NCBI GenBank assembly: GCA_963713285.1
Contig: CAVQLA010000014.1
Location: 140,566-204,565 of the forward strand
Direction: 5' to 3'
DNA: 64,000 nt
Source of the DNA: an uncultured Chloroflexia bacterium
Lineage (GTDB): Bacteria > Chloroflexota > Limnocylindria > Limnocylindrales > CSP1-4
Shown: positions 26,208 through 47,783 of the stretch, one piece after another
How the letters are laid out: each line of letters begins with the position of its first letter
How positions within the stretch are numbered: position 1 is the stretch's first letter
Notes under the pieces: model-generated
What the model was told of the DNA's origin: nothing
Seen by the model: only the letters and a program-made list of their open reading frames with translations
Databases searched by the model: none
Program-made: the position numbers and the translations under genes

Positions 26208-27923
26208 CTAGTACTTGCGCTCGACCGGCTTCCACATGTCGATCGTCACCGGCTTGTGCTCGAACCGGGGACCGTCGGGCGCGTGGAAGGCGAGCGTGTG
26301 CTTGAGCCAGCTCTCGTCGTCGCGGGTGGGGAAGTCCCGCCGGGCGTGGGCGCCGCGGGACTCCTCGCGGGCCAGCGCCCCGGCCACGGTCACCTCGGCC
26401 AGGTCCACGAGGTTCTCCAGCTCGAGGGCGTGGATGAGGTTGGAGTTGTAGACCCGCGACGTGTCGGCGACCGGCGCCCGCTGCGCGCGGCCGCGGACCT
26501 CGCGGACCTGCTGCAGCGCCGTCGCCAGGTCCTGGCCGTTGCGGAAGACGCCGACGCACGTGTCCATCGTCTCGCGCAGCTCGCGGCGCAGCGCGTAGAG
26601 GTTCTCGTCGCCGGTTCGTGCCAGCACCTGCCGGACGCGGTCCTCGGCCCGCCCCACCTGGTCCACGGGCAGTGGCGCGGCGGCCGCCAGCCCGGGCAGC
26701 GCCGCGGCGATCTCGCGCCCGGCGATGCCGCCCCAGACCAGGCACTCGGCCGTCGAGTTCGAGCCCAGCCGGTTCGCGCCGTGCAGCGAGACGCAGGCTG
26801 CCTCGCCGGCGGCCCAGATGCCGGCCACCCGCGTCTGGCCCGTGATGTCGGTCTCGATGCCGCCCATCGAGTAGTGCGCCACGGGGCGGATCGGGATGGG
26901 CTTCTCGATCGGGTCGAGCCCCAGGAACTTGATGGTCACCTCGCGGATCAGCGGCAGCCGCGTGTTGATGCGGTCGGCGCCGAGGTGGGTGAGGTCGAGC
27001 TCCAGGTAGTCCTGCCCGTCGGGGGTCTTGAAGCCGCGCCCGGCGAGGATCTCCTCGGTCTCGGCGCGCGAGACCATGTCGCGCGGTGCCAGCTCCATGA
27101 GCTTGGGCGCGTAGCCCGCCATGAACCGTTCGCCCGTGTTGTTCCTCAGGTAGCCGCCCTCGCCGCGGCAGGCCTCGGTCATGAGGATGCCGTTCGGCAC
27201 CAGGCCGGTCGGGTGGAACTGCAGGAACTCCATGTCCTCCAGCGGCAGGCCGGCCCGGTAGGCCATCGCCATGCCATCGCCCGTCACCGTCTGGGAGTAC
27301 GTCGTGAAGCCGTACAGGCAGCCGCCGCCGCCCGACGCGATCAGCAGCGCCCTGCCGCGGATCGCGACGGTCTCGCCGGTGCCCGTGTCCAGGCCGACCA
27401 GGCCGGCGAACGCACCGTCGTTCACCAGGATGTCGGTGACGAAGAGCTCGTCGTAGCGGGTGAACGTGCGGTAGCGCTGCAGCTGGTCGTACAGCGTCTG
27501 CATCTCGAAGAAGCCGGTCTTGTCGGCCGCCAGCGTCGCCCGCGGGTAGCTGTGCCCGCCGAACGGGCGCTGGGAGATGTAGCCGTCGGGGTCGCGCGTC
27601 CAGGGGATGCCCCAATGGTCGAGCTGGTCGATCTCCTTGGGGATCGTGTCGACGAAGGTCCGCACCACGTCCTGGTCGGCCAGGAAGTCCGAGCCCTTGA
27701 CCGTGTCCCAGGCGTGCAGCTCGCGGGAATCGCCCAGGTCCTCGCGCAGGACGGCCGCCGTGCCGCCCTCGGCGCAGACCGAGTGCGCCCGCATGAGCTG
27801 GACCTTCGACACGATCCCGATGTCGACCTTGCCCTCGAGGCGCCGGGAGATCTCCACGGCAGCACGCAGCCCGGCCAGCCCTGCTCCCAGGATCACGACG
27901 TCGTGCTGCAGCTCACGATCCAT
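26208..27923 (-). CDS. sdhA: Succinate dehydrogenase/fumarate reductase flavoprotein subunit
   Basis: FAD motif VVILGAGLAGLRAA, covalent-FAD histidine region RAHSVCAEGG, active-site HPTGL and RLGSNS. Confidence 0.9.
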   Translation of the reverse strand: MDRELQHDVVILGAGLAGLRAAVEISRRLEGKVDIGIVSKVQLMRAHSVCAEGGTAAVLREDLGDSRELHAWDTVKGSDFLADQDVVRTFVDTIPKEIDQLDHWGIPWTRDPDGYISQRPFGGHSYPRATLAADKTGFFEMQTLYDQLQRYRTFTRYDELFVTDILVNDGAFAGLVGLDTGTGETVAIRGRALLIASGGGGCLYGFTTYSQTVTGDGMAMAYRAGLPLEDMEFLQFHPTGLVPNGILMTEACRGEGGYLRNNTGERFMAGYAPKLMELAPRDMVSRAETEEILAGRGFKTPDGQDYLELDLTHLGADRINTRLPLIREVTIKFLGLDPIEKPIPIRPVAHYSMGGIETDITGQTRVAGIWAAGEAACVSLHGANRLGSNSTAECLVWGGIAGREIAAALPGLAAAAPLPVDQVGRAEDRVRQVLARTGDENLYALRRELRETMDTCVGVFRNGQDLATALQQVREVRGRAQRAPVADTSRVYNSNLIHALELENLVDLAEVTVAGALAREESRGAHARRDFPTRDDESWLKHTLAFHAPDGPRFEHKPVTIDMWKPVERKY

Positions 27924-28495
27924 CGAGGAACCTCATGCGACCTTGCTCCGTCGGGCGGCGGCTGCCACCGCGGGAGGCCCAGCCGGCTCAGGGTAGGCCA
28001 GCGTCACCCATCGGAGAGGTGCCGATGGCCTCGTTCCGTTGGGCCTGCGGTCACGAGGTCCGCTGCGGCCGAGATCGACGCGCCGGCTCCCGGCCGGAGT
28101 CCTCCATCACCATCCTGACGGGCGGCTGCCGGCTCCGAGCCGAGGGAACCGGCCGGTCTCTGCCGCTGCCAACGCGGCGACCGCGGCGATGGCGACGCCG
28201 ATCGCGAGCACGATCACCCCCGCCACGAGAAGGTAGCGTCGCATCTCCAAGCCCTCCGCGATCGGCTGTGCGGGTCGGTCTCGCCAGTGGCTCGGCGCGG
28301 TCCCGGTGGCCGGAACGTGGGCCGCGTCGAGACTCTCCGCACCGGTCACGTTGGGGGCAGCTCGCGCGCCTGGCGAGAGGCGAACGGCCCATGGCTTCGC
28401 GGACCGGCCGGCGGCCGTCGAGCATTCTCGAACCCGCGAGACGCGTGGTCCCTCACGGGTTCACGAGCCAGGGAGGCGGTCCGGTTGGAGGCGCG

Positions 28496-33079: not shown

Positions 33080-36000
33080 CTAGCCGAGGACGACCCGGAC
33101 CCGGTGCGTGGCGCCGTCGTCGACGAGCGGGATGGCCGCGCCGCCGCCGGCCAGCACCTGCCCGTCGAGCTCCGACGAAGCGACGCCGCGGCTGACACCG
33201 TTCGGGTTCTCCACGACGATCTCGTACCTGGCAGAGCGATAGCGGAAGTCCATCTCGTAGCTCGGCCAGGCCCGGGGGATGCAGGGATCGACGTGGAGCG
33301 TCGTGCCTCGCAGGCGGAAGCCCAGGATCCCCTCGACGCCGGCCTGGTACATCCAGCCCGCCGACCCCGTGTACCAGGTCCAGCCCCCGCGGCCGACGTG
33401 CGGAGGCTCGGTGTAGACATCGGCCGCCATGACGTACGGCTCGACCTTGTAGCGATGGACCCCGGCCCTCGTGCTGGCGTGGTTGATCGGGTTCAGGATG
33501 GAGAACAGCTCGCCCGCCTTGTCGCCGTCGCCCAGGGCCGCGTAGGCGAGGACCGACCAGATCGCACCGTGGGTGTACTGGCCGCCGTTCTCGCGGATGC
33601 CGGGCAGATACCCCTTGACGTACCCCGGATCCACGTCGGAATGGTCGAACGGCGGGGTGAACAGCAGCACGAGGCCGTCGCCCCGCCGAATGAGGTACTC
33701 CTCCACTGCGGCCATCGCCCGCTCGGCGTGGGCTGGATCGGCGGCTCCCGACAGGACCGCCCAGGACTGGGCGATCGAGTCGATGCGGCACTCCACGTTC
33801 TGGGCGGAGCCGAGCGGGGTGCCATCGTCGAAGAAGGCTCGGCGGTACCAGTCGCCGTCCCAGCCGTGACGCTCGAGGGCCCGCCGCAGGGACTTCATGC
33901 GGGCCCGCCACCGCTCCGCGCGAGGACGATCGCCGCGGGCCTCGGCGATCGGCGCGAAGGCGGCCAGGACGGTGTGCAGGAACCAGGCCAGCCAGACGCT
34001 CTCGCCCCGGCCCTCCGCGCCCACCCGGTTCATGCCGTCGTTCCAGTCGCCCGACCCGATGAGCGGCAGCCCGTGCGCCCCGACGGCGAGGCTCCGGTCG
34101 AGGGCCGCCGCGCAGTGGTCGAACAGCGACGCCGACGCCGACGACGGGTCCGGCTCGAAGTAGGCGTCGGCCTGGTCCGGCTGGAGGGCGGGCCCCTCGA
34201 GGTAGGGGACGGTCTCGTCGAGGACCGACGTGTCGCCCGTCACGGCGAGGTAGCGATCGACCGCGTACGGCAGCCAGAGGCGATCGTCGGAGATCCGGGT
34301 CCGGACGCCCCGATCCGATGGCGGATGCCACCAGTGCTGGACGTCACCCTCGACGAACTGGTGGGCCGCCGCGCGCAGCAGGTGCTCGCGCGCGAGGTCG
34401 CGCCCCGTGGTCACCAGGGCGACGACGTCCTGGAGCTGGTCGCGGAACCCGTAGGCGCCGCCGGCCTGGTAGAACGCCGTCCTGGCCCACAGCCGGCACG
34501 CGAGCGCCTGGTAGATGAGCCAGCGGTTGAGCAGGATGTCCATCGAGCGGTCGGGTGTCCGCACCTGGACGGTGCCCTGCGTGTCATCCCAGAAGGTCGC
34601 GACCCGGTGCAGGCTCGCCTGGTGGTCGGCAGCCCGCGTGCGCCGGACGAGCTCCGCCGCCGCCGCGGCATCGTCCGCCTCGCCCAGCAGGACGAGCACC
34701 TGGGTCCGCGCCCCGTTGGCCAGCTCGAAGCTGGTCTGGAGGGCCGCGCACGGATCCAGCCCGGCGCCGACGGCTCCTCGCAGCCGGGATCCCCGCCCCA
34801 GGGCGGCGGGCCGCTCCGGGGACCCATTGCGGCCCAGGAACTCGGTCCGATCGGCCGTCCACGCCGCCTGGCGTCCGCCGAGGTCGAGGAAGGCGACCCG
34901 GCTGCCGAAGTCGATGTTCCACGGGTTGCGGGCGAGGAGCGCCCCGGACTCCGGCTCGAGGGCCGTGACGATCCTGGCTGCGCCGGCCCCGCGCGAGGTT
35001 CCCAGCGCCCACTCGGCGTAGGCCGTGACCGACAGGTGCCGGGTCCGCCCGGATCGGTTCTCGATCGTCAGCACCGAGATCTTCACGGGGTCGTCGAGCG
35101 GTACGAACTGGACGAGATCGAGGTGGATCCCACCGTGGAGGTGCTCGAAGCGGCTGTATCCGGCGCCGTGCCGGGCGATGTACGTCGACGCGTCGCGACG
35201 GATCGGCTGGATCGTCGGGCTCCACAGGTCGCCGCTCTCGTCATCCCGGACGTAGATCGCCTCGCTTGCCGGGTCGGTGACGGGGTCGTTGGACCACGGC
35301 GTGAGCTGGTTCTCGCGGCTGTTCCCCGACCACGTGTAACCCGCGCCGGACTCGGAGACGAGGAACCCGAACGACGGGTTGGCGATCACGTTCAGCCACG
35401 GTGCCGGCGTGGCCTGTCCCGGGCCGAGCATCGTGACGTACTCGCGGCCGCCGTCCGCGAAGCCGCCGAGGCCGTTGAAGAACTCGAGCTCGGGACGCGG
35501 CGCGGCCGCGTCGCTGCCGGACTCCCTCGAGGGCGGCGGTGCCGGGGGCCGGGCACTCGGCCCGGGACGCTCGAGGCGGATGACCTGGTCGGCGAGCGTG
35601 CCGCGGCGGCTCAGCAGGACGGCCCGGGCGGCGGCCTGGAGGAGCGTGCGGTCCTCGCTGGAGAGCTGGTCGCCGCGCAGGATGTGGACCCCGCCACGGC
35701 CGGGCTGGCCCTCGTGGGCCAGGGTCGACCGGCTGGTCCGCACCAGGGCCTCGAGCGAGTCGTGGAGGTTCTGGGCGTAGGTGGCGCCGTGCTCGTTGAG
35801 GATGACGAGGTCGACGTCGAGGAGCTTCAGCCGCCAGTACTCGTGGGCGCGGAGCAGCTGCCGAACGATGTCGAGGTCCTCGAGCTCGTCGATGCGGACC
35901 ATGACGATCGGCAGGTCGCCGGAGATGCCATGGGCCCAGAGGCCAGGCGCCCCTCGCTCGTTGCGTGCCAGCAGGGCCCCGGACGGTCGCAGCGAGGGGT

Positions 36001-39000
36001 CCGAGAAGAGGATCCGGTTGGCCAGGCGCTGGAAGAGATGGGCTTCGTCGCTCTCGATCCCCAGGTGATGCAGCTGGACCTGGGCCTGCGTCCACGCGAG
36101 GGTCGCCGCCCGCTCGAACGTGGCAGCCTCGCGGTACTTGTCGGCCAGGTCCAGGACCTGCTCGCGGGACTCGGCGACGACCGTGGAGAAGATCGCGTGG
36201 GCGGTCGCGCCCGGAGCGAGCCTGACCCGGCAGCGGAGGCTGAAGATCGGGTCCAGCACCGGGCCGACCGTGTTGGAGAGCGGACGCCCGTCGATCACGG
36301 ACACCGGCGAGCGGACCGACCGGCCCCGGCCCAGGAAGCGGGCGCGATCCGTCTCGTACTGCACGACCCCGTCCGCCTCCCCCTCGACCGCCGCGACATG
36401 CGCGGCCCAGATCGGCTGCTCGTCGCTGGATCGCGGACGGCGGGTCGCCAGGAGGGCGCCGATCTCGGGGGCGAACTCCGTCTGCACGAACAGGTTCTGG
36501 AACGCCGGGTGAGCGACATCCGCCGCCTGGGGCGCGAGGACGATCTCCGCGTAGGACGTCAGCTCGACCTCGCGAGCCTGCGAGCCGAGATTGGTCAACG
36601 AGACGCGGCGGATCTCCGCGTCGTGCTCCGTCGACACGACGATGGTCAGGCCGGTCGCGATGGAGCCGTCCCGACGCGCGAACTCGGCATGCTCCTCCGA
36701 GTAGGTGACCTCGTAGCTGTCCGCCTCGGCGCCGCTGGGCTGGTGCGTCGCGGACCAGACTGCGCCGGTCTGCATGTCGCGCAGGAAGAGGTAGCTGCCC
36801 CACGAGTCGCGTGTCACGTCTTCGCGCCACCGGGTGACGGCCATGTCGCCCCAGCGGCTGTAGCCGGATCCCGCTGCCGTCACCATGACCGCGTACCGCC
36901 CGTTCGAGAGCAGGTGCGAGCGCGGGATTGCGTCGTGGGGCGAGGTGAAGCGCCGGACGACCGGCGGCACGAGCTCGCGCACGTCGGCGGCGCTCTTCAC
37001 CTCTTCCGCCCGCGGCCGCGCCACGAGCACGTCGCGCGGCATCCGCTCCTGGAGCAGCAGCTCCGTGGCCTCGACGACCGGGTCGGCGTGGAAGCGGTCC
37101 ACCATCACGCGGTTGTTGAGGACGTTGCCGAGCGCAACCAGCGCCATCCCCTGGTGGTGCGCCATGTAGCTCTTGACCACCGCCACCGACTCGCCCTCGG
37201 GCAGCCGTCGCGCCGTGTAGTCGAGCGCCTCACGGAATCCGTACCGCCCGCCTGCCCCGGCCTTCGTCAGCCGGGTGAAGTTCCGGACCGCGGCCCCGGG
37301 GTCGACCATCGCCGCAAGGGCGGTCGCGTACGGCGCCACGACCACATCTTCGCTCAGGCCCCGCTTCAGGCCGAGGCCGGGCACCCCGAAGCCCGAGTAC
37401 TGGTACGTCTGCGCGAGGTCGCGCGCGTTGAACGCCGATTCGGAGATGCCCCATGGCACCCCGAGCTCCGCGGCGTAGCTCATCTGGCGCGCCACGACGA
37501 GCTCGTACGTGTGGTCGAGCAGGCTGTTGGCCGGAGCGCGCATGACGAGGGCGGGCATGAGGTACTCGAACATGGACCCCGACCACGAGATGAGGGCCGA
37601 GCCACGGCCGACGGGCGTCAGCGCGCGGCCGAGCCGGAACCAGTGGTCCGGCGCGACATCGCCCTTGGCGATCGCGAGGAAGCTCGCGAGGCGGGCCTCG
37701 GAGGCGAGGAGGTCGTAGTAGCTCGGATCCAGCGTGCCGTCCCGGACCCTGAACCCGATGGAGAAGAGCTTGCGGGTCGGGTCGAACAGGAAGCTGAAGT
37801 CCATCTCCCGGAAGAGCTGCTGGGCCCGGTCGGCGATCGCCTGGAGCCGTCGGACGAGCGTCGCCGCGGCCGGCGATCCTTCGCCGGGCTGCCGGTCCGG
37901 TGGATCGGACAGCTCGGCGATCGTCGGGAAGGCATCCACCGGTGCCAGGGGCCGCAGCAGCGCGAGATCCCGGACGTGGCTGCTCACTGACGCCCGGGCC
38001 GCCTCGGCCCATGTCACGAGATCGCCCTCCTGGCCCTCCTCACGCTCCGCGGTCAGGGCCGCGGCGACGTCCGAGAGGGTCCGGGCGTGGGCGGAGAGCT
38101 CGTCCAGGCGTGCCTCCCAGGCTTCGGGCGAGGCGGGGACGACGGAACCGGCCTCGGCGAGCGGCGCGAGGGCTTCGGCGAGCTGCCGCCGGGTGAGCGT
38201 CTGGCTTCGCCGGTCGTCGCCGATCGCGCCGGCAGCCTGGCGGGCCAGCGCGACCCCGTCGCCGATCCCGGCCAGCGCCGCCGCGACCGGAAGGGGCTGG
38301 TCGATCATCTGGCGGCAGGCATTCGAGAGCGCGAGCAGGTGGCCGGCGAGATTGCCGCTGTCGACCGACGACACGTACTCGGGCTCGAGCCGGTGCAGGT
38401 CGCGGGTGTCGTACCAGTTGTAGAGGTGCCCGCGGAACCGCTCGAGCCTGCCGATGGTCGAGAGGGTCGCCTCCAGGCGCTCGACCATCTCCAGCGTCCC
38501 GATCCAGCCGAGGTCGCGGGCCGTCACGGTCGCCAGCAGGTACATGCCGATGTTCGTCGGCGAGGTGCGATGCTCGACGACCGGCCGGGGATCGTCCTGG
38601 AAGTTGTCCGGCGGCAGCGCGTGATCCTCCGGGCCCACGAAGGTCTCGAAGAACCGCCAGGTCCGGCGCGCGATCAGGCGGAGTGCCCCGACCTCGGCCG
38701 CCGAGAGCTGCTGCGCAGCCGATTCGGGGGGCGGCAGGCTGACCCGGTGGGCGACGAGCGGCGCGACCAGCCACAGGACGACGAACGGTGCGGCGATCCA
38801 GGCCGCGCCCGGCTTGAGGGCGAGGACGAGCACGCCGGTGGCGATCGCGAGCGCGACGCCGCCCGCCATCTGCCGGTAGAACCCGGCGAGGTCGAGGTCG
38901 CGGCTGGCCGTGGCCTGCGCGGCGGTCATCCATTCGAGCAGGTTCCGCCGGGTGACGTACACGCGCGCCAGGGTTCGCAGGATCGCGTCGCCCATCAGCC

Positions 39001-41740
39001 ACGCCTGGTGGGCCAGGAACGTGAGGCCGAGGCCCACGTGGGCCGCGGCAAGCGCGACGTCCTCGCCCAGGGCTCGCAGGTGGCTGCGCTTGGAGATGCC
39101 CTGCCGTTGCGGCAGCAGCCCACCCAGGACGGGCAATGCCGCGGGGACGATCACCGACGCCAGGACGAACGCGGTCCAGGCGCCGGCCGAGACGGACGGG
39201 AGCGTCCAGGCCGCGACGAGCGTGGCCAGCGTGAGCGGGGCGGACAGCGTCCGGCGCAGGTTGTCGACCATCTTCCAGCGCGCGATGCCGGGGATCGAGC
39301 CACGCGGTCGCCGGCCCGTGGCGTCGCGGGCGCGGCCGAGGATCCACGGCAGGAGCTGCCAGTCGCCCCGCGCCCATCGGTGCTGGCGGGACGACGCGAC
39401 CAGGTAGTCGGAGGGGAACTCGTCGAAGAGCTCGACGTCGGTCACCAGCCCCGCCCGGGCGAAGGTGCCCTCGAACAGGTCGTGGCTCAGGAGCGCGTTC
39501 TCGGGAACCCGGTCCGCCATCGCAGCCCCGAAGGCGTCGAGGTCGTAGATCCCCTTGCCCGTGAAGCTCCCCTCGCCGAACAGGTCCTGGTAGACGTCGG
39601 AGACGGCCGATGCATACGGGTCGATCCCGGCCGGCCCGGAGAAGATCCGCTGGAAGCGCGATCCTCCATGCTCCGCCGGGAGCGTCGAGGTGATCCGCGG
39701 CTGGAGGACGCCGTAGCCCTGGGTCACCCGGCCGGCCCGCGCATCGAACGACGCGTGGTTGAGCGGATGGGCGATCGTCCCCACCAGGCGCCCCACCGCG
39801 CCCCGGGGCAGCCGGGTGTCGGCGTCGAGCGTGACGACATAGCGCACGTCCGTCGGCGGGGTCGACGCGGCCCGCCCCGTCGTGAGGATGCCGGTGGTCG
39901 CGGAGCCGCGCAGCAGCGCATTCAGCTCCAGGAGCTTGCCGCGCTTGCGCTCCCAGCCCATCCAGCAGCCCTCGGCCTCGTTCCACGTGCGATTCCGGTG
40001 GAACAGCAGGAACCGGGCGCCTCCCCCGGGCGCCTCCCCGTGGCGCTCGTTGAGCCGGTCGATGGCCGCCGCTGCCGCCGAGAGGAGCTCGTCGTCGCCG
40101 GGGACGTGCTCGGTCGGGGCGTCGAGCCAGTCCGAGAGCAGCGCGAAGCGCAGGTCGCCCTCGCGGTTGCCCAGGTAGTGGACCTCCAGGCCGTGGACCT
40201 GGGCCTCGACGTCCGCTTCGCCGGTGAGGAGCATCGGCACGACGACGAGGGTCCGCAGCCGGACCGGCACGCCGTCGTCCAGGTCGAGCCGGGGCAATGC
40301 CTTCGGGCCCAGCACGTTCGTGACCACGCGGTTGACGACGGCGATGGCGACGTCGGAGGCCGGGCCGAGCGCGAGGATCGCGATCACGACGATGCCGACA
40401 CCCGCGGCGCCTCCGTCCCAGGACAGCAGGATCGGCACGGCCAGGATCAGCGCCGTCACCGCCGCGAACGTCCCCAGGTAGCCGAGGGCTCCGGCTCGCA
40501 CATAGGCGCGCCGCAGCCTGGCTCCCCTGGGCACCCGAACGTGGAGGGCGCGTTCGAACGCGGAGCGGCCGTCCGAGATGAGGTAGTAGCCGGGCTCCCG
40601 GCGTCGACCCGCCAGGGCAGGCTCGTCGTCGCCGGCCGTCGTTGCGGCGTCCGCCATCTCCACGGCCAGCCGGGCGACCTCGACCTCGGTGAGGCCGGAG
40701 CCCCGGGCCAGCACCTCCACGGCGTGCCGGTAGCGATCGCGCGTCGCGAAGTCCATCTCGCCGAACGGACCTCGCGCGCGCAGGACGTCGTCGACCAGGC
40801 TGACGCTCTCGACGAACTCGGCCCAGTCGAACCACGAGATGAGGCGCATGCTCGTGATCACGTTCCGGACCGTCACGTTCATCGTCGCCTGGCGCTGGTG
40901 CTCCAGGCGGACCATCTCCTCGACGGTGGTCCCCGGGGCCGCGAGGAGCTCCTCCAGCCCGCGGAGGGCGGGGGTGACCGCCGGGTCCTGCTCGCGCAGG
41001 CGCTGGAAGAGCTGGACGCGGGCCGCCGTGGGAAGCCCCGTCCGCGCGAGCCGCCGCAGCGACGCCCCCGCGACCTCCGGGCTGTCCTTGCCGAGGCCGA
41101 GGAGGCCGTCGGCGAGCTTGTCTGCCTTCTCGCGCGCCGCTCGGCTGCGCACGATCTGCTCGGCGAGGCGGCGGAGGTTCTCGACCAGGAGGATGCGGAT
41201 GCTGATCGCGATCGCCCACAGCTCGCCGATCGTCAGCGGCTCCACCTCCTGGTAGCTCCGCACCATGCGCCGCAGGCTCTCGGGGTCGAACCGGCTGTCC
41301 GTGTGGGCGATGTAGGCCCAGGCGAGGCCGAGGACCCGCGGGTAACCGGCGAGATGGCCGTCGGCCAGCTTGGGGAGCTCGCGGTAGTAGTCCGGGGGAA
41401 GGTCGTCGCGGATCTCGCGGAGCTGCTCGTCGACGATGGGGAAGTTGTCGACGAGCCATTCGGCGGCCGGCGTGATCGCCCGCTCGTCCTTGATCGCCCG
41501 GGCCAGCACGCGGTACGCGTCGAGCAGGACGCGGCCGTTGTCGGCGATGCGGGGCCCGACGGCCTGCCCCCGGCCGGGCGTGTCCGTGACCGCCTGGGCG
41601 GCGGCCAGGGTCTGGGCGTGCTGCTCCAGCCGCTCCACGCTGAAGAGCTCCGCGAGGATCGGCTCCTCGAGCTCGGCATCCGGGCGAGCTCGTCCGCGAT
41701 CGCGACCGGGCAGGGATCCGAGGGGCTGGTTCGATCTCAT
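33080..41740 (-). CDS. ndvB: Cyclic beta-1,2-glucan synthase (GT84 glycosyltransferase + GH94 phosphorylase domains), 2886 aa
   Basis: N-terminal multi-TM GT region with the QHRW motif (SSRQHRWARGDWQLLPW). C-terminal GH94 / cellobiose-phosphorylase-like region (alpha/alpha toroid, GDWNDGMNRVG). Size and domain order match Cgs/ChvB/NdvB. Confidence 0.85.
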   Translation of the reverse strand: MRSNQPLGSLPGRDRGRARPDAELEEPILAELFSVERLEQHAQTLAAAQAVTDTPGRGQAVGPRIADNGRVLLDAYRVLARAIKDERAITPAAEWLVDNFPIVDEQLREIRDDLPPDYYRELPKLADGHLAGYPRVLGLAWAYIAHTDSRFDPESLRRMVRSYQEVEPLTIGELWAIAISIRILLVENLRRLAEQIVRSRAAREKADKLADGLLGLGKDSPEVAGASLRRLARTGLPTAARVQLFQRLREQDPAVTPALRGLEELLAAPGTTVEEMVRLEHQRQATMNVTVRNVITSMRLISWFDWAEFVESVSLVDDVLRARGPFGEMDFATRDRYRHAVEVLARGSGLTEVEVARLAVEMADAATTAGDDEPALAGRRREPGYYLISDGRSAFERALHVRVPRGARLRRAYVRAGALGYLGTFAAVTALILAVPILLSWDGGAAGVGIVVIAILALGPASDVAIAVVNRVVTNVLGPKALPRLDLDDGVPVRLRTLVVVPMLLTGEADVEAQVHGLEVHYLGNREGDLRFALLSDWLDAPTEHVPGDDELLSAAAAAIDRLNERHGEAPGGGARFLLFHRNRTWNEAEGCWMGWERKRGKLLELNALLRGSATTGILTTGRAASTPPTDVRYVVTLDADTRLPRGAVGRLVGTIAHPLNHASFDARAGRVTQGYGVLQPRITSTLPAEHGGSRFQRIFSGPAGIDPYASAVSDVYQDLFGEGSFTGKGIYDLDAFGAAMADRVPENALLSHDLFEGTFARAGLVTDVELFDEFPSDYLVASSRQHRWARGDWQLLPWILGRARDATGRRPRGSIPGIARWKMVDNLRRTLSAPLTLATLVAAWTLPSVSAGAWTAFVLASVIVPAALPVLGGLLPQRQGISKRSHLRALGEDVALAAAHVGLGLTFLAHQAWLMGDAILRTLARVYVTRRNLLEWMTAAQATASRDLDLAGFYRQMAGGVALAIATGVLVLALKPGAAWIAAPFVVLWLVAPLVAHRVSLPPPESAAQQLSAAEVGALRLIARRTWRFFETFVGPEDHALPPDNFQDDPRPVVEHRTSPTNIGMYLLATVTARDLGWIGTLEMVERLEATLSTIGRLERFRGHLYNWYDTRDLHRLEPEYVSSVDSGNLAGHLLALSNACRQMIDQPLPVAAALAGIGDGVALARQAAGAIGDDRRSQTLTRRQLAEALAPLAEAGSVVPASPEAWEARLDELSAHARTLSDVAAALTAEREEGQEGDLVTWAEAARASVSSHVRDLALLRPLAPVDAFPTIAELSDPPDRQPGEGSPAAATLVRRLQAIADRAQQLFREMDFSFLFDPTRKLFSIGFRVRDGTLDPSYYDLLASEARLASFLAIAKGDVAPDHWFRLGRALTPVGRGSALISWSGSMFEYLMPALVMRAPANSLLDHTYELVVARQMSYAAELGVPWGISESAFNARDLAQTYQYSGFGVPGLGLKRGLSEDVVVAPYATALAAMVDPGAAVRNFTRLTKAGAGGRYGFREALDYTARRLPEGESVAVVKSYMAHHQGMALVALGNVLNNRVMVDRFHADPVVEATELLLQERMPRDVLVARPRAEEVKSAADVRELVPPVVRRFTSPHDAIPRSHLLSNGRYAVMVTAAGSGYSRWGDMAVTRWREDVTRDSWGSYLFLRDMQTGAVWSATHQPSGAEADSYEVTYSEEHAEFARRDGSIATGLTIVVSTEHDAEIRRVSLTNLGSQAREVELTSYAEIVLAPQAADVAHPAFQNLFVQTEFAPEIGALLATRRPRSSDEQPIWAAHVAAVEGEADGVVQYETDRARFLGRGRSVRSPVSVIDGRPLSNTVGPVLDPIFSLRCRVRLAPGATAHAIFSTVVAESREQVLDLADKYREAATFERAATLAWTQAQVQLHHLGIESDEAHLFQRLANRILFSDPSLRPSGALLARNERGAPGLWAHGISGDLPIVMVRIDELEDLDIVRQLLRAHEYWRLKLLDVDLVILNEHGATYAQNLHDSLEALVRTSRSTLAHEGQPGRGGVHILRGDQLSSEDRTLLQAAARAVLLSRRGTLADQVIRLERPGPSARPPAPPPSRESGSDAAAPRPELEFFNGLGGFADGGREYVTMLGPGQATPAPWLNVIANPSFGFLVSESGAGYTWSGNSRENQLTPWSNDPVTDPASEAIYVRDDESGDLWSPTIQPIRRDASTYIARHGAGYSRFEHLHGGIHLDLVQFVPLDDPVKISVLTIENRSGRTRHLSVTAYAEWALGTSRGAGAARIVTALEPESGALLARNPWNIDFGSRVAFLDLGGRQAAWTADRTEFLGRNGSPERPAALGRGSRLRGAVGAGLDPCAALQTSFELANGARTQVLVLLGEADDAAAAAELVRRTRAADHQASLHRVATFWDDTQGTVQVRTPDRSMDILLNRWLIYQALACRLWARTAFYQAGGAYGFRDQLQDVVALVTTGRDLAREHLLRAAAHQFVEGDVQHWWHPPSDRGVRTRISDDRLWLPYAVDRYLAVTGDTSVLDETVPYLEGPALQPDQADAYFEPDPSSASASLFDHCAAALDRSLAVGAHGLPLIGSGDWNDGMNRVGAEGRGESVWLAWFLHTVLAAFAPIAEARGDRPRAERWRARMKSLRRALERHGWDGDWYRRAFFDDGTPLGSAQNVECRIDSIAQSWAVLSGAADPAHAERAMAAVEEYLIRRGDGLVLLFTPPFDHSDVDPGYVKGYLPGIRENGGQYTHGAIWSVLAYAALGDGDKAGELFSILNPINHASTRAGVHRYKVEPYVMAADVYTEPPHVGRGGWTWYTGSAGWMYQAGVEGILGFRLRGTTLHVDPCIPRAWPSYEMDFRYRSARYEIVVENPNGVSRGVASSELDGQVLAGGGAAIPLVDDGATHRVRVVLG

Positions 41741-41927
41741 GGTCCGCCGTCAGCGCAGGGCCTGACCTGGTCAGCCCTCGCCTCGACGGGGGGAGACCTG
41801 GCGATCATAGCGACCGCCCCCCGGATGCACGAGCGAGCCTGTCGAGGCGCGGGGGTCGATGCCCGGCGGGGAGCCGGTTGCGACGGCGGCCAGGGTGGGG
41901 CCCGGGAGGCACCCGGGTCACCCGCGA

Positions 41928-42965
41928 TCAGGGAGCGGGCGTCGCCTCGGGCGTCGGTGTCGGCGTCGGGTCTGGCGTGGGTGACGGTGTCGTGTCTGGT
42001 GGCGGCGTCGGTGACGGCGTCGCGTCTGGAGTCGGTGACGGCGTCGCGTCTGGAGTCGGTGTCGGCGTCGGGTCTGGTGTCGGCGTCGGGTCTGGTGTCG
42101 GCGTCGGTGTAGGTGTTGGCGTCGGGCGAGGTCTCGGCGTCGGCCGAGGCGTCGGTGTCGGTGTCGGTACTGGGGTCGGCGGCAGCGTCGCCTCCGGTGT
42201 CGGCGTCGGGGTCGGGTCCGGGGTGACCTCGGGCGTGGGGGTCGGCTCCGGGGTGAGCTCGGGCGTCGGGGTCGGCTCGGGCGAAGGGGTCGCCTCGGGT
42301 GTCGCCTCGGGTGTCGGCGTCACCTCCATCGACGGAGGGGGCGTGACCGTGTCGGGCCCCGTCCCCGGGTTCTGTTTCGGGTCCGGCGCCGGCGTGGGAT
42401 CGGGCGTTGTGACGGGCATCTCGCCGGGGGCCCTCGAGCCGTCCTGGGATCGCAGCTCGCAGTTCTCGAAGCGGTCCTTCGCCGTGCCGTAGCAGGCGTC
42501 CGCGTTCCCGGCGCCGCCGTCGAGCAGGTCCCTTCCGTTGCCGCCCTCGATCATGTCGTCGTCGCCGCCACCGTGGAGCGTGTCGGCGCCCTCGCCGCCC
42601 AGCAGCACGTCCTTTCCGTTCCCGCCGACTAGGCTGTCGTTGCCCTCCCCGCCGACCAGGCAGTCCTTGCCGTTGCCGCCGTCGATCGTGTCGTCGCCGC
42701 CGAGCCCGAAGACGAGCGCGCCCCCGTTGCCGGCGACGAGGTCATCGTCTCCCGACGTTCCGACGATGACCTGGGCGAACTCCATGTCGGCGCATTCGGG
42801 CGGCACGGCCGGCGTGGGAGTCGGTTCGGGAATCTGCGCGATGAGCTGCAGGGCGAACGTGATCGAGTCCGAGAAGTAGGCCGACGAGCTCCCGATGCCC
42901 ACGGCCAATCCCGCGACGACCAGGCCGGCTACCGCGAGGCGCAGGTGGCGTGGGCCTCTACGCAT
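41928..42965 (-). CDS. Secreted SipW-cognate protein with RTX-like Gly/Asp calcium-binding-type repeats and a Pro/Thr-rich tandem-repeat C-terminal tail
   Basis: N-terminus ...[18 protein letters not shown] (AYFSD-type SipW-cognate signal). Middle region [59 protein letters not shown]. The C-terminal ~150 aa are (T/P)PTP(E/D)(A/P)TP repeats. AAGGAG RBS. Confidence 0.7.
41931..42380. repeat. Tandem degenerate short repeats (GTCGGTGTCGGCGTCGGG-like units) encoding the Pro/Thr-rich tail
   Basis: Visible periodic ggcgtcggtgtcggcgtcgggtctgg... units. This is a coding low-complexity repeat, not a CRISPR array (no spacers, no constant repeat). Confidence 0.7.
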
Positions 42966-43503
42966 CGGGGTTCGGCTCCTTGCCGCTCACCGGGACGGCG
43001 GCCGCGCGTCGACGACGGATCGTGCTCACCTCGTCACCGATGGTGCGCACCTGCCCGAGGATGAGCACACCGAGCGTCGCGATGAGAACGCCGAAGAACA
43101 CGATCGGTTGGTGCAACACATAGAGCAGGTATCCGAGGTAGGGGACGCTGAGCCGGACGGTCCCGAGGACGTCCGAGGACGAGCGGGGCGTCACGTCGAC
43201 GCTGTTGTTCGCGTCGCCCTTTGTCTGGAATGACGCCGATCCGACGGCGACTACGCGATGGGTGACGATGCCCTCGGTCGCATCATGGAACATCACGACC
43301 GCCCCGACCTCGGGGACCAGCTCGGTCCGGTCGACCACGACGACGCTGCCGAGGTGGATGGCGGGCTCCATGCTCCCGCCGCTCACCACGCGCACGTCAT
43401 ATGGCGAGATGCGCGGCAGCGCGAGCACGACGACGACCGCGACGAGCAGCGCCAGGAAGGCGCCCTGGATCGCCGACCGGGTGAAGCGCAACACACCGCG
43501 CAC
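42958..43503 (-). CDS. sipW: Type I signal peptidase of the SipW subtype (archaeal/ER-like S26B)
   Basis: Catalytic SGGSMEP motif preceded by a TM ([15 protein letters not shown]). GTG at 43503 preceded by GAGGAG; the ORF-track start at 43563 is probably too long. Confidence 0.8.
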
Positions 43504-43575
43504 GGTTCCGACTCCTCGTGGTCCGACTGCGGGAAGGGCGGGATGGCCCGCCCCTCCCTTCACGACGGACGCGGC

Positions 43576-44121
43576 TCAGTGCGGGGTGGTCCCCGTGATG
43601 GTGCCGGTGATCGTGAACCCGGTGTAGCCCTGCAGGTTGTTCTGATTCAGTTGGTCGGCTGCTGCGTTCCAATGGAGGCGCAGGACGGCGTAGGAGGTGG
43701 CTCCGACAGCCAGCGTCGGGCCGAGCGACTGCGGGTTGTTCGGGACGAGGTAGGCGCTAAGGAGGTAGTCCGTCCCGTAGCCGGTGCAGTCGGGGGTGGG
43801 GTTGATGCTGAGATCCAGCGCATTCTGGACGGCGAGGGCCAACCTATCCGCAGGGGGCGTGCTGAGCGTCAAGGTCACGTCCAGCGCGTAGTCCCCGGTA
43901 TTGTGGATTCGAATGCACGTGTACTCGTCGAAGCCGGGACCAACCATCAGCGGCGAGCCGGTGAGGGTGCCGTCGACCTGGGCCACGTCGAGATCGGCGG
44001 TGCCGGTCGTGAGCGTGAACCCGGGCCCTGCCTGCTGGACCTGGAAGTAGGCGGCAGTCGCGAAGACGCCGACGCCGAGGAGCGCGGAGATGACGAACAA
44101 CGATGCGAGAAGCTTTCGCAC
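43576..44121 (-). CDS. TasA/camelysin-like SipW-cognate secreted protein
   Basis: Signal peptide MRKLLASLFVISALLGVGVFATAAYFQVQ (AYF SipW-cognate motif), followed by a beta-rich domain. GTG 44121 preceded by GAGGGA. Confidence 0.7.
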   Translation of the reverse strand: MRKLLASLFVISALLGVGVFATAAYFQVQQAGPGFTLTTGTADLDVAQVDGTLTGSPLMVGPGFDEYTCIRIHNTGDYALDVTLTLSTPPADRLALAVQNALDLSINPTPDCTGYGTDYLLSAYLVPNNPQSLGPTLAVGATSYAVLRLHWNAAADQLNQNNLQGYTGFTITGTITGTTPH

Positions 44122-44511
44122 GATTAATCCCTCGGTGAGCACCGCGGGCTGCGGATACTTGGCAGCGACGGCGGTGCGGACAGACGCTCGGTCAGCGGAT
44201 CGCGTCGGTCCGAGACCTCAGGTGCCGTGGTCGCCGGCGTCTGCTCGGCGACACGGGTGCGCGGCCACCGCGTGGGCACTCGCGGCCGGCTCTCCCTCGG
44301 GATGTCACGGGGACCAGGTGCCACCTGGTCGGAGGAACGCCGGCCGAACGTACTAGGTGATTCGACCTAGGGATATACCGCTTGTCCGATTCCGGTTCGG
44401 CGATCGCCCTGGCGGTGCCTCAAAGCACCGGCTCTCGGCCGGGTCAGCAACCGGAGGAAGGGCGCCCTGTGGCGCGGCGACCACCGCGCGCGGTCGCCGG
44501 CCGCCCGCTCG

Positions 44512-45213
44512 TCAGAGAGCCGGAGCGCCGTCCGGGGCGGCCACTTCAACCAGTCGGGCGAGCCCCTCCTCGTCGAGGACGATGATCCCGCCGCCCCGTT
44601 CGCGCTTCACGAGGCCGTCTGCTTCCAGTCGGCTCAGCGTCCGGTACATCATCACGCGGCTCGTGCCGATCATGGCCGCCAGGTCGGCGCGCAGCGCGAC
44701 CGGGTGGGGCGTGTCGAAGATCACCTTCCCGTACCGAAGGAGAATGGCGGCCATCCGCTGGCGCGCGCTCGCGAAGGACCGTTCGTCGAGCCGCACATTG
44801 AGGACCACCGCGAAATCCGAGGCCAGGTCGAGCAGGCCCACGGCCAGCCCGGCGTCCTGGAGCGCGAGCTCGCGCATGAAGACCGGATCCCACGTCGCCC
44901 ACGTCCCGTCGCTCAACGCGACGAGCTCGTACAGCGCGTCGGCGGTCGGGTCGCTGATCGAGCGGAGTCCGCCGAAATAGCCAGGGCCCGCGATCAGCGC
45001 TGCGTACACCTGTCCCGTCTCCACCACGCGGCGGTTCATGACGTGCCCGTCGAGCACGACGAACGGGGGCAGCTGGATCCCCCTCGAGTGCAACAGGTCA
45101 CGGCGAGAGAAGGCCTGCAGGCGAGCCCCCCGCTCCAGGCGACGCAGCGTGCTGGCTTCCATGCCTGGGAGAAGCCGTGCCAGGTGATCACCAACTGGTT
45201 CGATCGCACCCAT
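44512..45213 (-). CDS. Crp/Fnr-family transcriptional regulator (cNMP-binding domain + C-terminal HTH)
   Basis: cNMP-binding beta-roll (FSRRDLLHSRGIQLPPFVVLDGHV...) and HTH RADLAAMIGTSRVMMYRTLSRLEADGLV. ATG at 45211-45213. Confidence 0.8.
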   Translation of the reverse strand: MGAIEPVGDHLARLLPGMEASTLRRLERGARLQAFSRRDLLHSRGIQLPPFVVLDGHVMNRRVVETGQVYAALIAGPGYFGGLRSISDPTADALYELVALSDGTWATWDPVFMRELALQDAGLAVGLLDLASDFAVVLNVRLDERSFASARQRMAAILLRYGKVIFDTPHPVALRADLAAMIGTSRVMMYRTLSRLEADGLVKRERGGGIIVLDEEGLARLVEVAAPDGAPAL

Positions 45214-45585: not shown

Positions 45586-46380
45586 ATGATTCCCGGCCTC
45601 GTGAGCGACCCGGAGGTCGAGGCGCACCGCGCGCTGGTGCTCCACGATCGCCCGCTGGTCGTGGACCTGATCGAGCTGACGCTGAACCACGGCATCTTCG
45701 TCGTCCGGGCCGCGAGCAGCCTGGCAGACGCCGAGGCGATCCTGGACGAGTGGCGCCCGCACCTCGCCGTCATCGACATGGACCACGACGACAGCACGGC
45801 GCTGCTCCAGCGTATCGGCGCCTCGAACACCTTGACCCGCAGCGTGACGCCGGCCCTGGGCCTGACCCGGCGCGGCGACCTCAAGACCAAGCTGCGGGCC
45901 TTCGAGCTCGGCGTCGACGACATCCTGACGGTGCCGTTCTCACCTGAGGAGCTCCTGGCCCGGTCGATCGTCATCACCCGTCGCGCCTCAGGGACCGACC
46001 GACCCATCGTGCCGACGATCAGGCTCGGCGAGATCGAGATCGACATCCTCAGCCGCCAGGTGCGGGCCGGCGACTCGGTCATCCACCTGAGCGGCATCGA
46101 GCAGAGCCTGCTGTACCTCCTCGCGAGTCGCGGCGGACGCGTCGTCACGCGCGAGGAGATCCTCGACGCCGTCTGGGGCACCGACTTCCTGACCGAGAGC
46201 AACATCGTGGATCGCCACGTTCGCAGCCTGCGGGTCAAGCTGCAGAACGACTACCGGCATCCGCGCTTCATCGCCACGGTCCCCGGCCAGGGGTACCGTT
46301 TCATCCCCACCTTCACGAACACGGGCTGGGGTGCCGGGGTCGAGCCGGTGGGGCGGCCGCCCGAGCGGCGTCGCAACTGA
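45586..46380 (+). CDS. OmpR-family response regulator (orphan; receiver domain with atypical acidic pocket)
   Basis: Receiver VIDMDHDD...K in LKTKLRAFELGVDDILTVPF. Winged-helix DNA-binding domain ...VIHLSGIEQSLLYLLASRGGRVVTREEILDAVWG...GQGYRF. No histidine kinase adjacent. Confidence 0.8.
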   Translation: MIPGLVSDPEVEAHRALVLHDRPLVVDLIELTLNHGIFVVRAASSLADAEAILDEWRPHLAVIDMDHDDSTALLQRIGASNTLTRSVTPALGLTRRGDLKTKLRAFELGVDDILTVPFSPEELLARSIVITRRASGTDRPIVPTIRLGEIEIDILSRQVRAGDSVIHLSGIEQSLLYLLASRGGRVVTREEILDAVWGTDFLTESNIVDRHVRSLRVKLQNDYRHPRFIATVPGQGYRFIPTFTNTGWGAGVEPVGRPPERRRN

Positions 46381-46764: not shown

Positions 46765-46889
46765 GCACAGGGGGCGGCCGCGTGTCGCCGTGGCTCGGCC
46801 TGAGAGTGCCGGGTTTCGGGCCGAGCCTCGGGCGCGCCGAATGATCGCTGGAACGCGGCATCGTGCCCCGCCCGCCGGAGGATCGTGAA

Positions 46890-47783
46890 ATGTCGTTCAA
46901 CCCCGGCGCAAAGCTCGATCCATCTCAGGTCGAGGACGTCCGCGGGTCGCGGATCGGGAGGCGTGGACTGACCGTCGGCGGCGGCGGGATCGGGCTCGTC
47001 GTCGCCCTCGTGTGGGTCCTCCTGGGAGGCAGCCCGTCGACCGGCGGGACACTCGGCAGCCTGGTCGACCAGACGGTCGGCGGTGGCGCCGGCGAGCCGG
47101 CGCCGGCCAGCACTGCCCTCGCCAACGAGTGCAGGACCGGTGCCGACGCGAACGCCCGGGACGACTGCCGGATCGTCGGCTACATCAACAGCATCCAGGC
47201 CTACTGGACCAGCGAGTTCGCCGCCTCGGGCCAGCGCTACGTCGGGGCGAAGACCACCTTCTTCACCGAGCAGATCAGCACCGGCTGCGGCGTCGCGTCG
47301 TCGGCCAGCGGTCCGTTCTACTGCCCGAGCGACACGTCCGTCTACATCGACCTCGGCTTCTTCGACGAGCTGCGCTCGAAGTTCGGGGCCCAGGGAGGCC
47401 CGTTCGCGCAGGCATACATCCTGGCTCATGAGTACGGCCACCACGTCCAGGATCTCGTCGGAACGCTCTCGGGCGGGACAAGCCAGGAGGGGGAGGCCGG
47501 GCAGTCGGTCCGGACCGAGCTCCAGGCCGACTGCTACGCTGGCGTCTGGGCGAACCACGCGGCCGCGACCAACTACCTCGTGCCGCTCACGGGCGCGGAC
47601 ATTGCCGACGCCCTCGATGCCGCGAGGGCCGTCGGAGACGACCGGATCCAGAAGGAGATGCAGGGCCAGGTCAACCCCGAGACCTGGACCCACGGCTCGT
47701 CCACCCAGCGCCAGAAGTGGTTCACGATCGGCTACGAGTCCGGGTTGCCGGATCGCTGCGACACGTTCAGCGGTAGCCCCTGA
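46890..47783 (+). CDS. Putative neutral zinc metallopeptidase (YpfJ-like), membrane-anchored
   Basis: N-terminal TM ([16 protein letters not shown]), HEYGHH zinc-binding motif, and conserved Cys pairs. Confidence 0.8.

Follow-up and report, generated by a model that had tools for sequence, protein, structure and literature searches.

A three-gene operon for a putative TasA-type fiber protein, a SipW-like signal peptidase, and an RTX accessory protein in an uncultured Chloroflexota bacterium

Does a cluster of three genes in the DNA of an uncultured Chloroflexia bacterium encode an extracellular fiber of the TasA type, and what part could be played in it by the unusual RTX protein that accompanies the presumed subunit? 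The cluster lies in a stretch of 64,000 nucleotides (contig CAVQLA010000014.1 of assembly GCA_963713285.1, positions 140,566 to 204,565 of the forward strand), which was analyzed as a whole and is referred to here as the window. In the order of transcription, it consists of the genes for a small secreted protein (P1), a signal peptidase, and a second secreted protein (P3) that combines RTX repeats with a Pro/Thr-rich tail. A first-pass annotation of the window had likened this arrangement to the tapA–sipW–tasA operon of Bacillus and had proposed a novel secreted fiber or adhesin system. Our analysis shows that the locus is a real three-gene operon, comprising a TasA-type fiber protein, its own dedicated peptidase, and an RTX accessory. 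The operon is of a kind already known; no earlier description appears to exist of its RTX accessory or of the conserved RNA leader that precedes P1.

Gene organization, signal peptidase, and signal motif

The three genes are co-oriented on the minus strand, exactly where the first-pass annotation had placed them as a SipW-type system (Table 1), and the GC content of the window is very high (69–79%). Each gene is preceded by a ribosome-binding site, namely GAGGGA at 6 nt from the GTG codon of P1, GAGGAG at 8 nt from the GTG codon of the peptidase, and AAGGAG at 10 nt from the ATG codon of P3. For P1 and the peptidase, the same starts were called by NCBI and ENA on the identical contig. The gap from P1 to the peptidase gene is 72 nt, and the ATG codon of P3 and the stop codon of the peptidase gene overlap (8 nt); judging from this overlap, P3 is translationally coupled to the peptidase gene.

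The class of the peptidase was analyzed with family hidden Markov models (HMMs) and with a profile of its relatives. The enzyme passed the cut-off of TIGR02228, the archaeal/endoplasmic reticulum (ER)-type signal peptidase I family that includes SipW, with a score of 80.1 bits (cut-off, 51.85). It failed those of the bacterial LepB-type family TIGR02227 (29.4 bits versus 47) and of the Bacillus SipW equivalog NF046067 (76.3 bits versus 190). The peptidase is SipW-like and is not a SipW ortholog in NCBI's sense. When a profile built from 15 relatives was compared with all PDB sequences, human SEC11A and SEC11C alone were matched (E ~1e-13), and no LepB structure was found among the matches. Ser44 in the SGGSMEP signature, which had already been pointed out, is invariant in the 15 sequences, as are His82 (VTHRV), Asp97 (GDAN), and Asp103. 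The segments SGGSMEP, VTHRV, and TKGDAN align with SGSMEP, VHRV, and TKGDNN of SEC11A. The Ser–His chemistry of SipW and Sec11 is established, and the alignment places the present peptidase with the Ser–His(–Asp) type of enzyme, not with those using a Ser–Lys dyad. Since it consists of 181 residues with one hydrophobic span per end, it belongs to the small SipW-like form, not to the ten-helix form reported for AbpX loci. The earlier assignment to the SipW type rather than to canonical LepB was thus correct.

Both proteins flanking the peptidase carry the AYF(S/Q) motif of SipW-cognate signals, as had been claimed. When all six frames of the 64 kb were scanned with a regular expression combining a basic N-region with a hydrophobic core and [YFW][FWY], P1 and P3 alone were returned. 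The signal of P1 ends with GVFATAAYFQ, and the predicted cuts precede Tyr-Phe in both proteins (TAA↓YFQ in P1 and SSA↓YFSD in P3). The motif is also conserved among orthologs: in 22 P1 homologs, Ala24 and Phe26 are invariant, and Tyr25 is at least 90% conserved. The SipW-cognate signal model TIGR04088 gave 16.0 bits with P3 (cut-off, 19) and no match with P1. It was matched by 12 of the 44 P1 relatives (E ≤ 0.01) and by 10 of the 40 P3 relatives scanned (E ≤ 0.05). HMMs built from each of the three proteins detected no paralog in the window, and no LPXTG-type protein or signal was found anywhere in the 64 kb.

These results bear on the simplest alternative, in which the arrangement is a coincidence and a housekeeping signal peptidase happens to lie between two unrelated secreted proteins. 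No point in support of it was found, and it can practically be dismissed. It is refuted by the ER type of the peptidase as opposed to the LepB type, by the restriction of the motif to the two neighbors, and by the conservation of the gene order in many unrelated contigs.

The candidate fiber subunit and the RTX accessory protein

Mature P1 is predicted to extend from Tyr25 to His181 (cut after Ala24), giving a protein of 157 residues with a pI of 4.1, no lysine, and two conserved cysteines. A word-indexed protein search yielded five relatives only, and an exhaustive profile search yielded 294 cluster representatives at E ≤ 1e-3 (26 at E ≤ 1e-10). In 22 close homologs, a TGTA-L strand, a GPG segment, Cys69, Cys112, and a C-terminal NQNxLQG...GxT motif are invariant or nearly so. 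The AlphaFold model of P1 has a mean predicted local distance difference test (pLDDT) score of 88 and a predicted template modeling score of 0.75. With this model as a query, the TasA fiber structure 8AUR was the sole Foldseek match at E ≤ 0.001 (E = 5e-6). Connections by sequence were found through intermediates: among 44 aligned relatives, 12 match Peptidase_M73 (camelysin/TasA), two the TasA model, and two the BsaA model. Among PDB sequences, the profile of these 44 sequences reached AbpX (7.3e-5), TasA (5OF1 and 8AUR, 1.2e-4), and another AbpX entry (7e-4), and in its alignment the first mature residue of TasA stands opposite Tyr25 of P1. P1 has the two traits by which TasA-superfamily members are recognized, a TasA-type β-sandwich fold and a conserved N-terminal strand encoded beside a TIGR02228 peptidase gene; a peptidase gene adjoins the P1-type gene in every locus with enough sequence. 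Since the direct HMMs and a profile of the close clade are silent, the link to TasA rests on fold, intermediate sequences, and context. As modeled, P1 is a compact member of the TasA superfamily, and by its profile scores it lies outside the TasA family as defined in Pfam and NCBIfam. The earlier description of P1 as TasA/camelysin-like thus held for the fold (AlphaFold/Foldseek, 8AUR) and did not hold for the families, as P1 itself matched neither the Peptidase_M73 nor the TasA HMM.

A non-fibrous P1, such as a monomeric secreted or surface β-sandwich resembling camelysin or a spore-coat protein, is improbable. The same low estimate applies to a P1 polymerized like BsaA, and cross-linking by isopeptide bonds is excluded because mature P1 has no lysine.

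P3 begins with a SipW-type signal (residues 1–29), which is followed by a predicted mature N terminus, an RTX region, and the Pro/Thr-rich tail. The RTX-like repeats noticed in the first pass proved to be ten in-register nonapeptides (GGxGxDxUx), which scored 93.2 bits with PF00353 HemolysinCabind (cut-off, 23) and impose periodicities of 27 and 54 nt on the DNA. Full-length RTX toxin models gave scores far below their cut-offs. Four cysteines flank the RTX region, of which Cys58, Cys102, and Cys158 are invariant in the family and Cys169 is at least 90% conserved. The roll is expected to fold only in extracellular calcium. The tail, previously estimated at about 150 residues, measures 161 residues (42% Pro and 29% Thr) and is encoded by a degenerate tandem array. 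A 204-residue open reading frame of GVGVGSGVG repeats on the plus strand is the antisense reading of this array, an artifact and not a gene. TIGR04087 (TapA/YqxM) was not among the NCBIfam matches of P3 at E ≤ 1, and any relation of P3 to TapA would be one of function only. Two other readings were rejected. Export of P3 by the twin-arginine pathway was discarded because RTX proteins are expected to cross unfolded and the twin-arginine consensus is incomplete. The JGI label "ribosomally synthesized peptide with SipW-like signal", which is attached to some homologs, was discarded because these proteins have 150–345 residues and folded domains.

The N-terminal and RTX part of P3 has 493 metagenomic homologs at E ≤ 1e-5, most of them with 150–320 residues, and a signal ending in (Y/F)A(A/S)(W/F)SD is frequent among them. 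Their C termini vary and consist of nothing, a Pro/Thr-rich tail, LysM (P0282 and P0290), or PKD (P0286 and locus L107), indicating that the signal-plus-RTX design is the family trait and the long Pro/Thr tail is one C-terminal option. In the P3 proteins of the related loci L003, L005, and L007–L012, a common layout of Y[FL]xx, a β-prone stretch, and a Pro linker was observed. The first six mature residues of P1 and of the P3 from the same locus are identical at 31 of 60 positions, as against 18.1 ± 3.0 when partners were shuffled. This test on ten loci, with a frequency of about 1 in 10,000 shuffles, is crude and ignores the relatedness of the loci.

The module recurs in other genomes. The order P1-like, peptidase, P3-like was found in L003, L005, L007, L009, L010, L012, L013, L090, and L107. 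The P3 body is not RTX in the two metagenomic loci L003 and L005, is RTX with a Pro/Thr tail in L007, L009, and L010 (Chloroflexota metagenome-assembled genomes, MAGs), and is RTX with LysM in L090 and RTX with PKD in L107. Among 80 genome loci with related peptidases, an RTX gene lies directly downstream of the peptidase gene in five, which fall among the seven closest loci (L007–L013) and are all Chloroflexota MAGs. L087 and L088, which are of an actinobacterial type, encode a TasA-like protein, a peptidase, and, next in order, a short RTX member of the P3 family. This genome is not alone in having an RTX accessory, which is also found in several Chloroflexota MAGs, and related proteins are encoded in actinobacterial-type loci. 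In full-text literature searches, an RTX accessory was nowhere described for operons of this kind, and for TasA-like systems in Chloroflexota only a mention of AbpX homologs was found. As to the proposed novelty of the secreted fiber or adhesin system, the RTX accessory appears to be undescribed, and the system itself is of a known kind.

Several of these loci have further genes. In L087 (3340–6475) and L088 (45–2213), the RTX gene is followed by a fourth gene for a protein of ~280–300 residues that carries an ordinary signal peptide and ends with an LP(L/F)TG sorting signal; its body looks TasA-like by eye only, and it is a possible wall-anchored acceptor subunit. L107 (1–5575) is a tandem array of modules encoding, in order, a TasA-like protein with a peptidase, another TasA-like protein (weak Peptidase_M73 match) with a second peptidase, a P1-type protein, a third peptidase, the RTX and PKD protein, and a further PKD protein. 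In L003 (305–2944), L007 (2286–4998), and L090 (693–3455), genes for a HisKA_3 kinase and a GerE-type regulator precede the operon, and a conserved divergent gene for a protein of ~165 residues that belongs to no known family is also found upstream. In the window, the counterpart of the HisKA_3/GerE pair is a Crp-type and an OmpR-type regulator.

The leader and the proposed mechanism

A conserved leader of ~180–240 nt, a candidate structured cis-regulatory RNA, precedes P1. In the model, its last helix pairs the near-invariant GUCUGUCC with the P1 ribosome-binding site GGAGGGA. Nine copies were collected with a pattern scan and a covariance model (R1), scoring 88–194 bits and each abutting the GTG codon of a P1-type gene; in the metagenome pattern scan, 9 of the 14 matches were chance hits that showed no similarity and had no P1 gene. 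The leaders of eight loci are 75–91% identical to that of the window at the nucleotide level, whereas the coding sequences are 64–74% (nucleotide) and 35–57% (amino acid) identical; the leader is more conserved than the adjacent coding sequence. Its indels of 1 and 2 nt speak against a coding region. Across the nine sequences, 11 pairs changed on both sides, as against 4.6 ± 1.6 in shuffles (0/500), and 91.9% of the cells are paired, as against 32–49% with slid partners. No Rfam family matched the leader at its gathering score, and at E ≤ 10 the region 44050–44560 gave only an irrelevant plus-strand match (18.5 bits). The leader is absent from the P1-type loci L003, L005, L008–L011, L013, and L105–L108, and is hence not universal in the P1 family. 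L012 (5128–5330) has a full copy (88 bits) followed by a P1-type frame that stops after eight codons, and the genes for the peptidase and the RTX protein downstream of it are intact. Either the P1 gene of L012 is disrupted, or the assembly of this long-read MAG contains an indel.

Upstream of the leader lies an AT-rich spot resembling a promoter or operator. The core CTAGTAC(G/C/T)(T/C)T precedes every leader copy except that of L007 (eight of nine), and the 5′ hairpin of the leader is conserved along with it, whereas the exact palindrome CTAGGT-N6-ACCTAG is confined to this genome. A sigma-70 consensus scan gave no promoter site. A Crp-family gene lies directly upstream of the operon and also upstream of the P1 homolog in L006; linked by position only, its product is a candidate regulator of the operon.

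Instead of a structured RNA, the stretch upstream of P1 could be a regulatory region acting at the DNA level, with sites for the Crp-type or two-component regulators, or the remnant of a recent transfer. We regard this as rather unlikely. A Crp-type regulator or the HisKA_3/GerE pair does adjoin the operon in most loci, and two properties of the leader count for this alternative and against our own interpretation: its covariation rests on nine related sequences that were aligned, and thereby fitted, to the model, and its single-sequence folding energy is ordinary (z = –1.05). However, the compensatory changes exceed those in shuffles and slid controls, as illustrated by helix 6, in which an A-U pair is replaced by G-C in L004 and L012, and in every copy, the ribosome-binding site forms the end of the element, which carries a conserved anti-Shine–Dalgarno stretch. 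The much greater divergence of the coding sequence beside it argues against a recent transfer.

The gap between P1 and the peptidase gene contains a GC-rich hairpin. The 86-nt intergenic fold has an energy of –46.9 kcal/mol (z = –3.18), and none of 200 shuffles was as stable. The same hairpin was found in L003 and L005, and at the corresponding position in L007 there is a hairpin with another sequence.

Here, we propose that these genes form a self-contained module, the product of which is an extracellular donor-strand fiber of the TasA superfamily; P1 would build the fiber, and P3 would cap or nucleate its open end. On balance, we lean slightly toward this interpretation. P1 and P3 would be exported unfolded via the Sec pathway, and the membrane-bound ER-type peptidase encoded between them would cut both before the conserved Tyr-Phe. 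Mature P1, an acidic β-sandwich, would then polymerize by donor-strand complementation as TasA does, with the freed N-terminal strand of one subunit completing the fold of the next. TasA polymerizes by inserting its N-terminal strand (residues 28–38) into the next subunit, and the N terminus of TapA resembles this donor strand and is predicted to supply the first one (PMC9674648). TapA donates its N terminus, has no further part in the filament, and is scarce; its gene overlaps sipW (PMC10151520). In TasA-superfamily loci, a TIGR02228 peptidase with variable tip or anchor proteins is the rule (bioRxiv 10.64898/2026.01.04.697558). P3 has a P1-like N terminus and no TasA-like body, so that it could only donate a strand and occupy the groove end. 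By inserting this strand into the groove left open in the first P1 subunit, it would nucleate or cap one fiber end, like TapA, and its Ca2+-dependent RTX β-roll and long Pro/Thr tail would hang on that end as an anchor or adhesin. The LysM C terminus of some P3 homologs suggests wall binding; in actinobacterial-type loci, the LPXTG partner hints at anchoring of the other fiber end. By analogy with pilus operons, the hairpin after P1 and the overlap of the peptidase and P3 genes may keep the output of P1 high and that of the peptidase and P3 low. The leader RNA would control expression through its ability to sequester the P1 ribosome-binding site, and the adjacent Crp-type regulator would probably contribute.

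Apart from the two properties of the leader mentioned above, several points weigh against this mechanism. P1 gave nothing at E ≤ 1 in Pfam or NCBIfam, including PF12389 (Peptidase_M73) and NF046066 (TasA), and the profile of its close clade alone detected no TasA among the PDB sequences. Position 4 of mature P1 is Val, not an acidic residue as in the Ca-dependent AbpX strand. Recognition of both proteins by one peptidase would suffice to explain the N-terminal covariation of P1 and P3. A single-chain model of the P1 core, a Pro/Thr linker, and the P3 strand, computed without alignment input, reached a pLDDT of 50.6, too low a confidence to count either way. The source organism is uncultured, and the evidence is computational throughout.

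Some of these points are shared by a competing explanation of P3, which may be an independent secreted Ca2+-binding surface protein or adhesin that uses the same peptidase as P1 and stays outside the fiber, its N-terminal likeness to P1 being a requirement of the peptidase. In the wider RTX family, the conserved motif (Y/F)A(A/S)(W/F)SD is indeed the signal-plus-cleavage region, the tracking of the P1 and P3 N termini within a locus is expected from coevolution with one peptidase, and the single-chain model gave no structural sign of docking of the P3 strand. We nevertheless hold this explanation to be doubtful. The 10–16 residues after the motif are always β-prone and set off by a Pro-rich linker, even in L003 and L005, where the RTX body is missing, and this pattern fits a functional free strand. 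Moreover, the constant position of a P3-type gene beside a TasA-fold gene and the precedent of TapA argue for a joint function. The operon itself is solid, and the mechanisms proposed for P3 and the leader are plausible, if unproven.

A bolder extension of the strand-donation mechanism can be put forward only tentatively and has two linked parts: the leader would be a new class of cis-regulatory RNA, and SipW-signal RTX proteins would be new fiber-end subunits. A riboswitch-like RNA that sequesters the ribosome-binding site would then control TasA-type fiber operons in uncultured Chloroflexota, and Sec-exported β-rolls would donate a strand, so that nucleation or anchoring of the fiber is gated by extracellular calcium.

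The features of the operon and other features of the window are listed in Table 1. The 2886-residue protein encoded downstream has two GH94 supersandwich domains, a GH94 catalytic domain, and a glucoamylase-like domain, and resembles a cyclic β-1,2-glucan synthase. Its gene, which shares the strand of P3, begins 187 nt downstream of it and is not beside the operon in related loci; a link of this protein to the fiber is unproven. Just beyond the Crp-type regulator, an OmpR-type response regulator gene with no adjacent kinase gene and a gene for a putative neutral Zn metallopeptidase were found, both of which are also present on the identical ENA contig L001. The only Rfam match in the window is a cyclic di-GMP-II-GAG (c-di-GMP-II-GAG) riboswitch aptamer ~340 nt upstream of a succinate dehydrogenase/fumarate reductase flavoprotein gene, which is followed by open reading frames resembling a membrane anchor and an Fe-S subunit. 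Succinate dehydrogenase/fumarate reductase is an unusual target for this riboswitch.

Table 1. Positions of the operon, its parts, and other features in the 64,000-nt window
Feature	Position	Strand	Remarks
P1	43576–44121	–	GTG start; candidate TasA-fold fiber subunit, 181-residue precursor
Signal peptidase gene	42958–43503	–	GTG start; ER/archaeal-type (SipW-like), 181 residues
P3, accessory protein	41928–42965	–	ATG start; 345 residues
Predicted mature N terminus of P3, candidate donor strand (residues 30–45)	42831–42878	–	β-prone; Pro-rich linker next
RTX β-roll region of P3 (residues 69–158), ten nonapeptides	42492–42761	–	PF00353
Pro/Thr-rich tail of P3 (residues 185–345)	41931–42413	–	no C-terminal anchor motif
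Antisense reading of the Pro/Thr array	41878–42492	+	artifact
Intercistronic GC-rich hairpin, 12-bp stem, P1/peptidase gap	43531–43558	–	by folding
Conserved 5′ leader, candidate structured cis-regulatory RNA	44122–44340	–	5′ hairpin, then ~180-nt multihelix element
AT-rich promoter-/operator-like spot	44347–44370	–	palindrome CTAGGT-N6-ACCTAG, then TACGTT
Crp-family transcription regulator, 233 residues	44512–45213	–	Pfam HTH_Crp_2, 49.8 bits; directly upstream, co-oriented
OmpR-type response regulator	45586–46380	+	
Putative neutral Zn metallopeptidase	46863–47783	+	PF04228
GH94-type protein	33080–41740	–	
c-di-GMP-II-GAG riboswitch aptamer	28264–28346	–	RF03169, 48.4 bits; gathering score 40
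Succinate dehydrogenase/fumarate reductase flavoprotein	26208–27923	–	

Comparison with known systems

Donor-strand fibers of the TasA type are emerging as a matrix scaffold common to bacteria and archaea, and almost all knowledge of them comes from Bacillus and a few hyperthermophilic archaea. The present locus is a minimal, compact version from a poorly known soil lineage, with a 157-residue subunit, a 181-residue peptidase, and one accessory. It points to a recurrent type of accessory, an RTX β-roll behind a SipW-type signal, that would link calcium to fiber ends and use Sec instead of type I export, and it offers a candidate RNA regulator for TasA-type operons. Should the roles assigned to P3 and the leader be wrong, the remainder would be one more member of a known system.

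The operon would function like two of the closest known systems, the tapA–sipW–tasA operon of Bacillus subtilis, with TasA as fiber, TapA as nucleator or anchor, and SipW as peptidase, and the AbpX and AbpA loci. The likeness drawn by the first-pass annotation is valid insofar as a peptidase stands between two proteins that share a signal type; the order of roles is reversed, as the fiber subunit comes first and the accessory last. Mature P1 has 157 residues, compared with 234 for B. subtilis TasA. P3 and TapA are not homologous, and the RTX β-roll and Pro/Thr tail replace the immunoglobulin-like domain of TapA. The B. subtilis operon is regulated by SinR, whereas no SinR was found here and a Crp-type regulator and a leader RNA are the candidates.

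The bundling-pilus loci of AbpX and AbpA, with AbpX homologs reported in Chloroflexota (bioRxiv 10.64898/2026.01.04.697558; PMC9245690), are alike in the small acidic subunit (pI ~4), the aromatic residue at mature position 2, the adjoining TIGR02228 peptidase, the variable tip or anchor proteins, and the nearby regulators. The broad P1 profile matches AbpX slightly better than TasA (7e-5 versus 1.2e-4), whereas by structure TasA comes nearest to P1. Ten transmembrane helices are reported for the AbpX-associated peptidase, as opposed to a pair of hydrophobic spans in 181 residues here. The acidic residue at position 4 of the AbpX strand is absent in P1 and present in P3. In the survey of AbpX, RTX is named as an analogy only, and no RTX-type accessory is reported (bioRxiv 10.64898/2026.01.04.697558).

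P3 shares its nonapeptides with the RTX proteins of type I secretion systems (hemolysins, serralysins, and RTX adhesins), and its best NCBIfam alignments are with hemolysin repeat blocks. Unlike these proteins, which have a C-terminal signal, P3 has a predicted cleavable N-terminal signal of the Sec/SipW type and ends with the Pro/Thr tail; it also differs in its small size, four conserved cysteines, and apparent Chloroflexota lineage. No type I secretion gene was seen among the neighbors examined (the GH94-type gene, the Crp-type and OmpR-type regulators, and the Zn peptidase).

The actinobacterial and clostridial SipW-dependent proteins (TIGR04089 RER_14450 and TIGR04090 BsaA) share the type of signal and likewise have a peptidase of their own, although P1 matches neither model. 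The fourth, LPXTG-anchored protein of the actinobacterial-type loci is missing here, and the isopeptide bonds by which BsaA polymerizes are impossible for lysine-free mature P1. By fold and context, the operon described here is a member of the TasA superfamily that stands outside the TasA, TapA, BsaA, and Bacillus SipW HMM families as currently defined.

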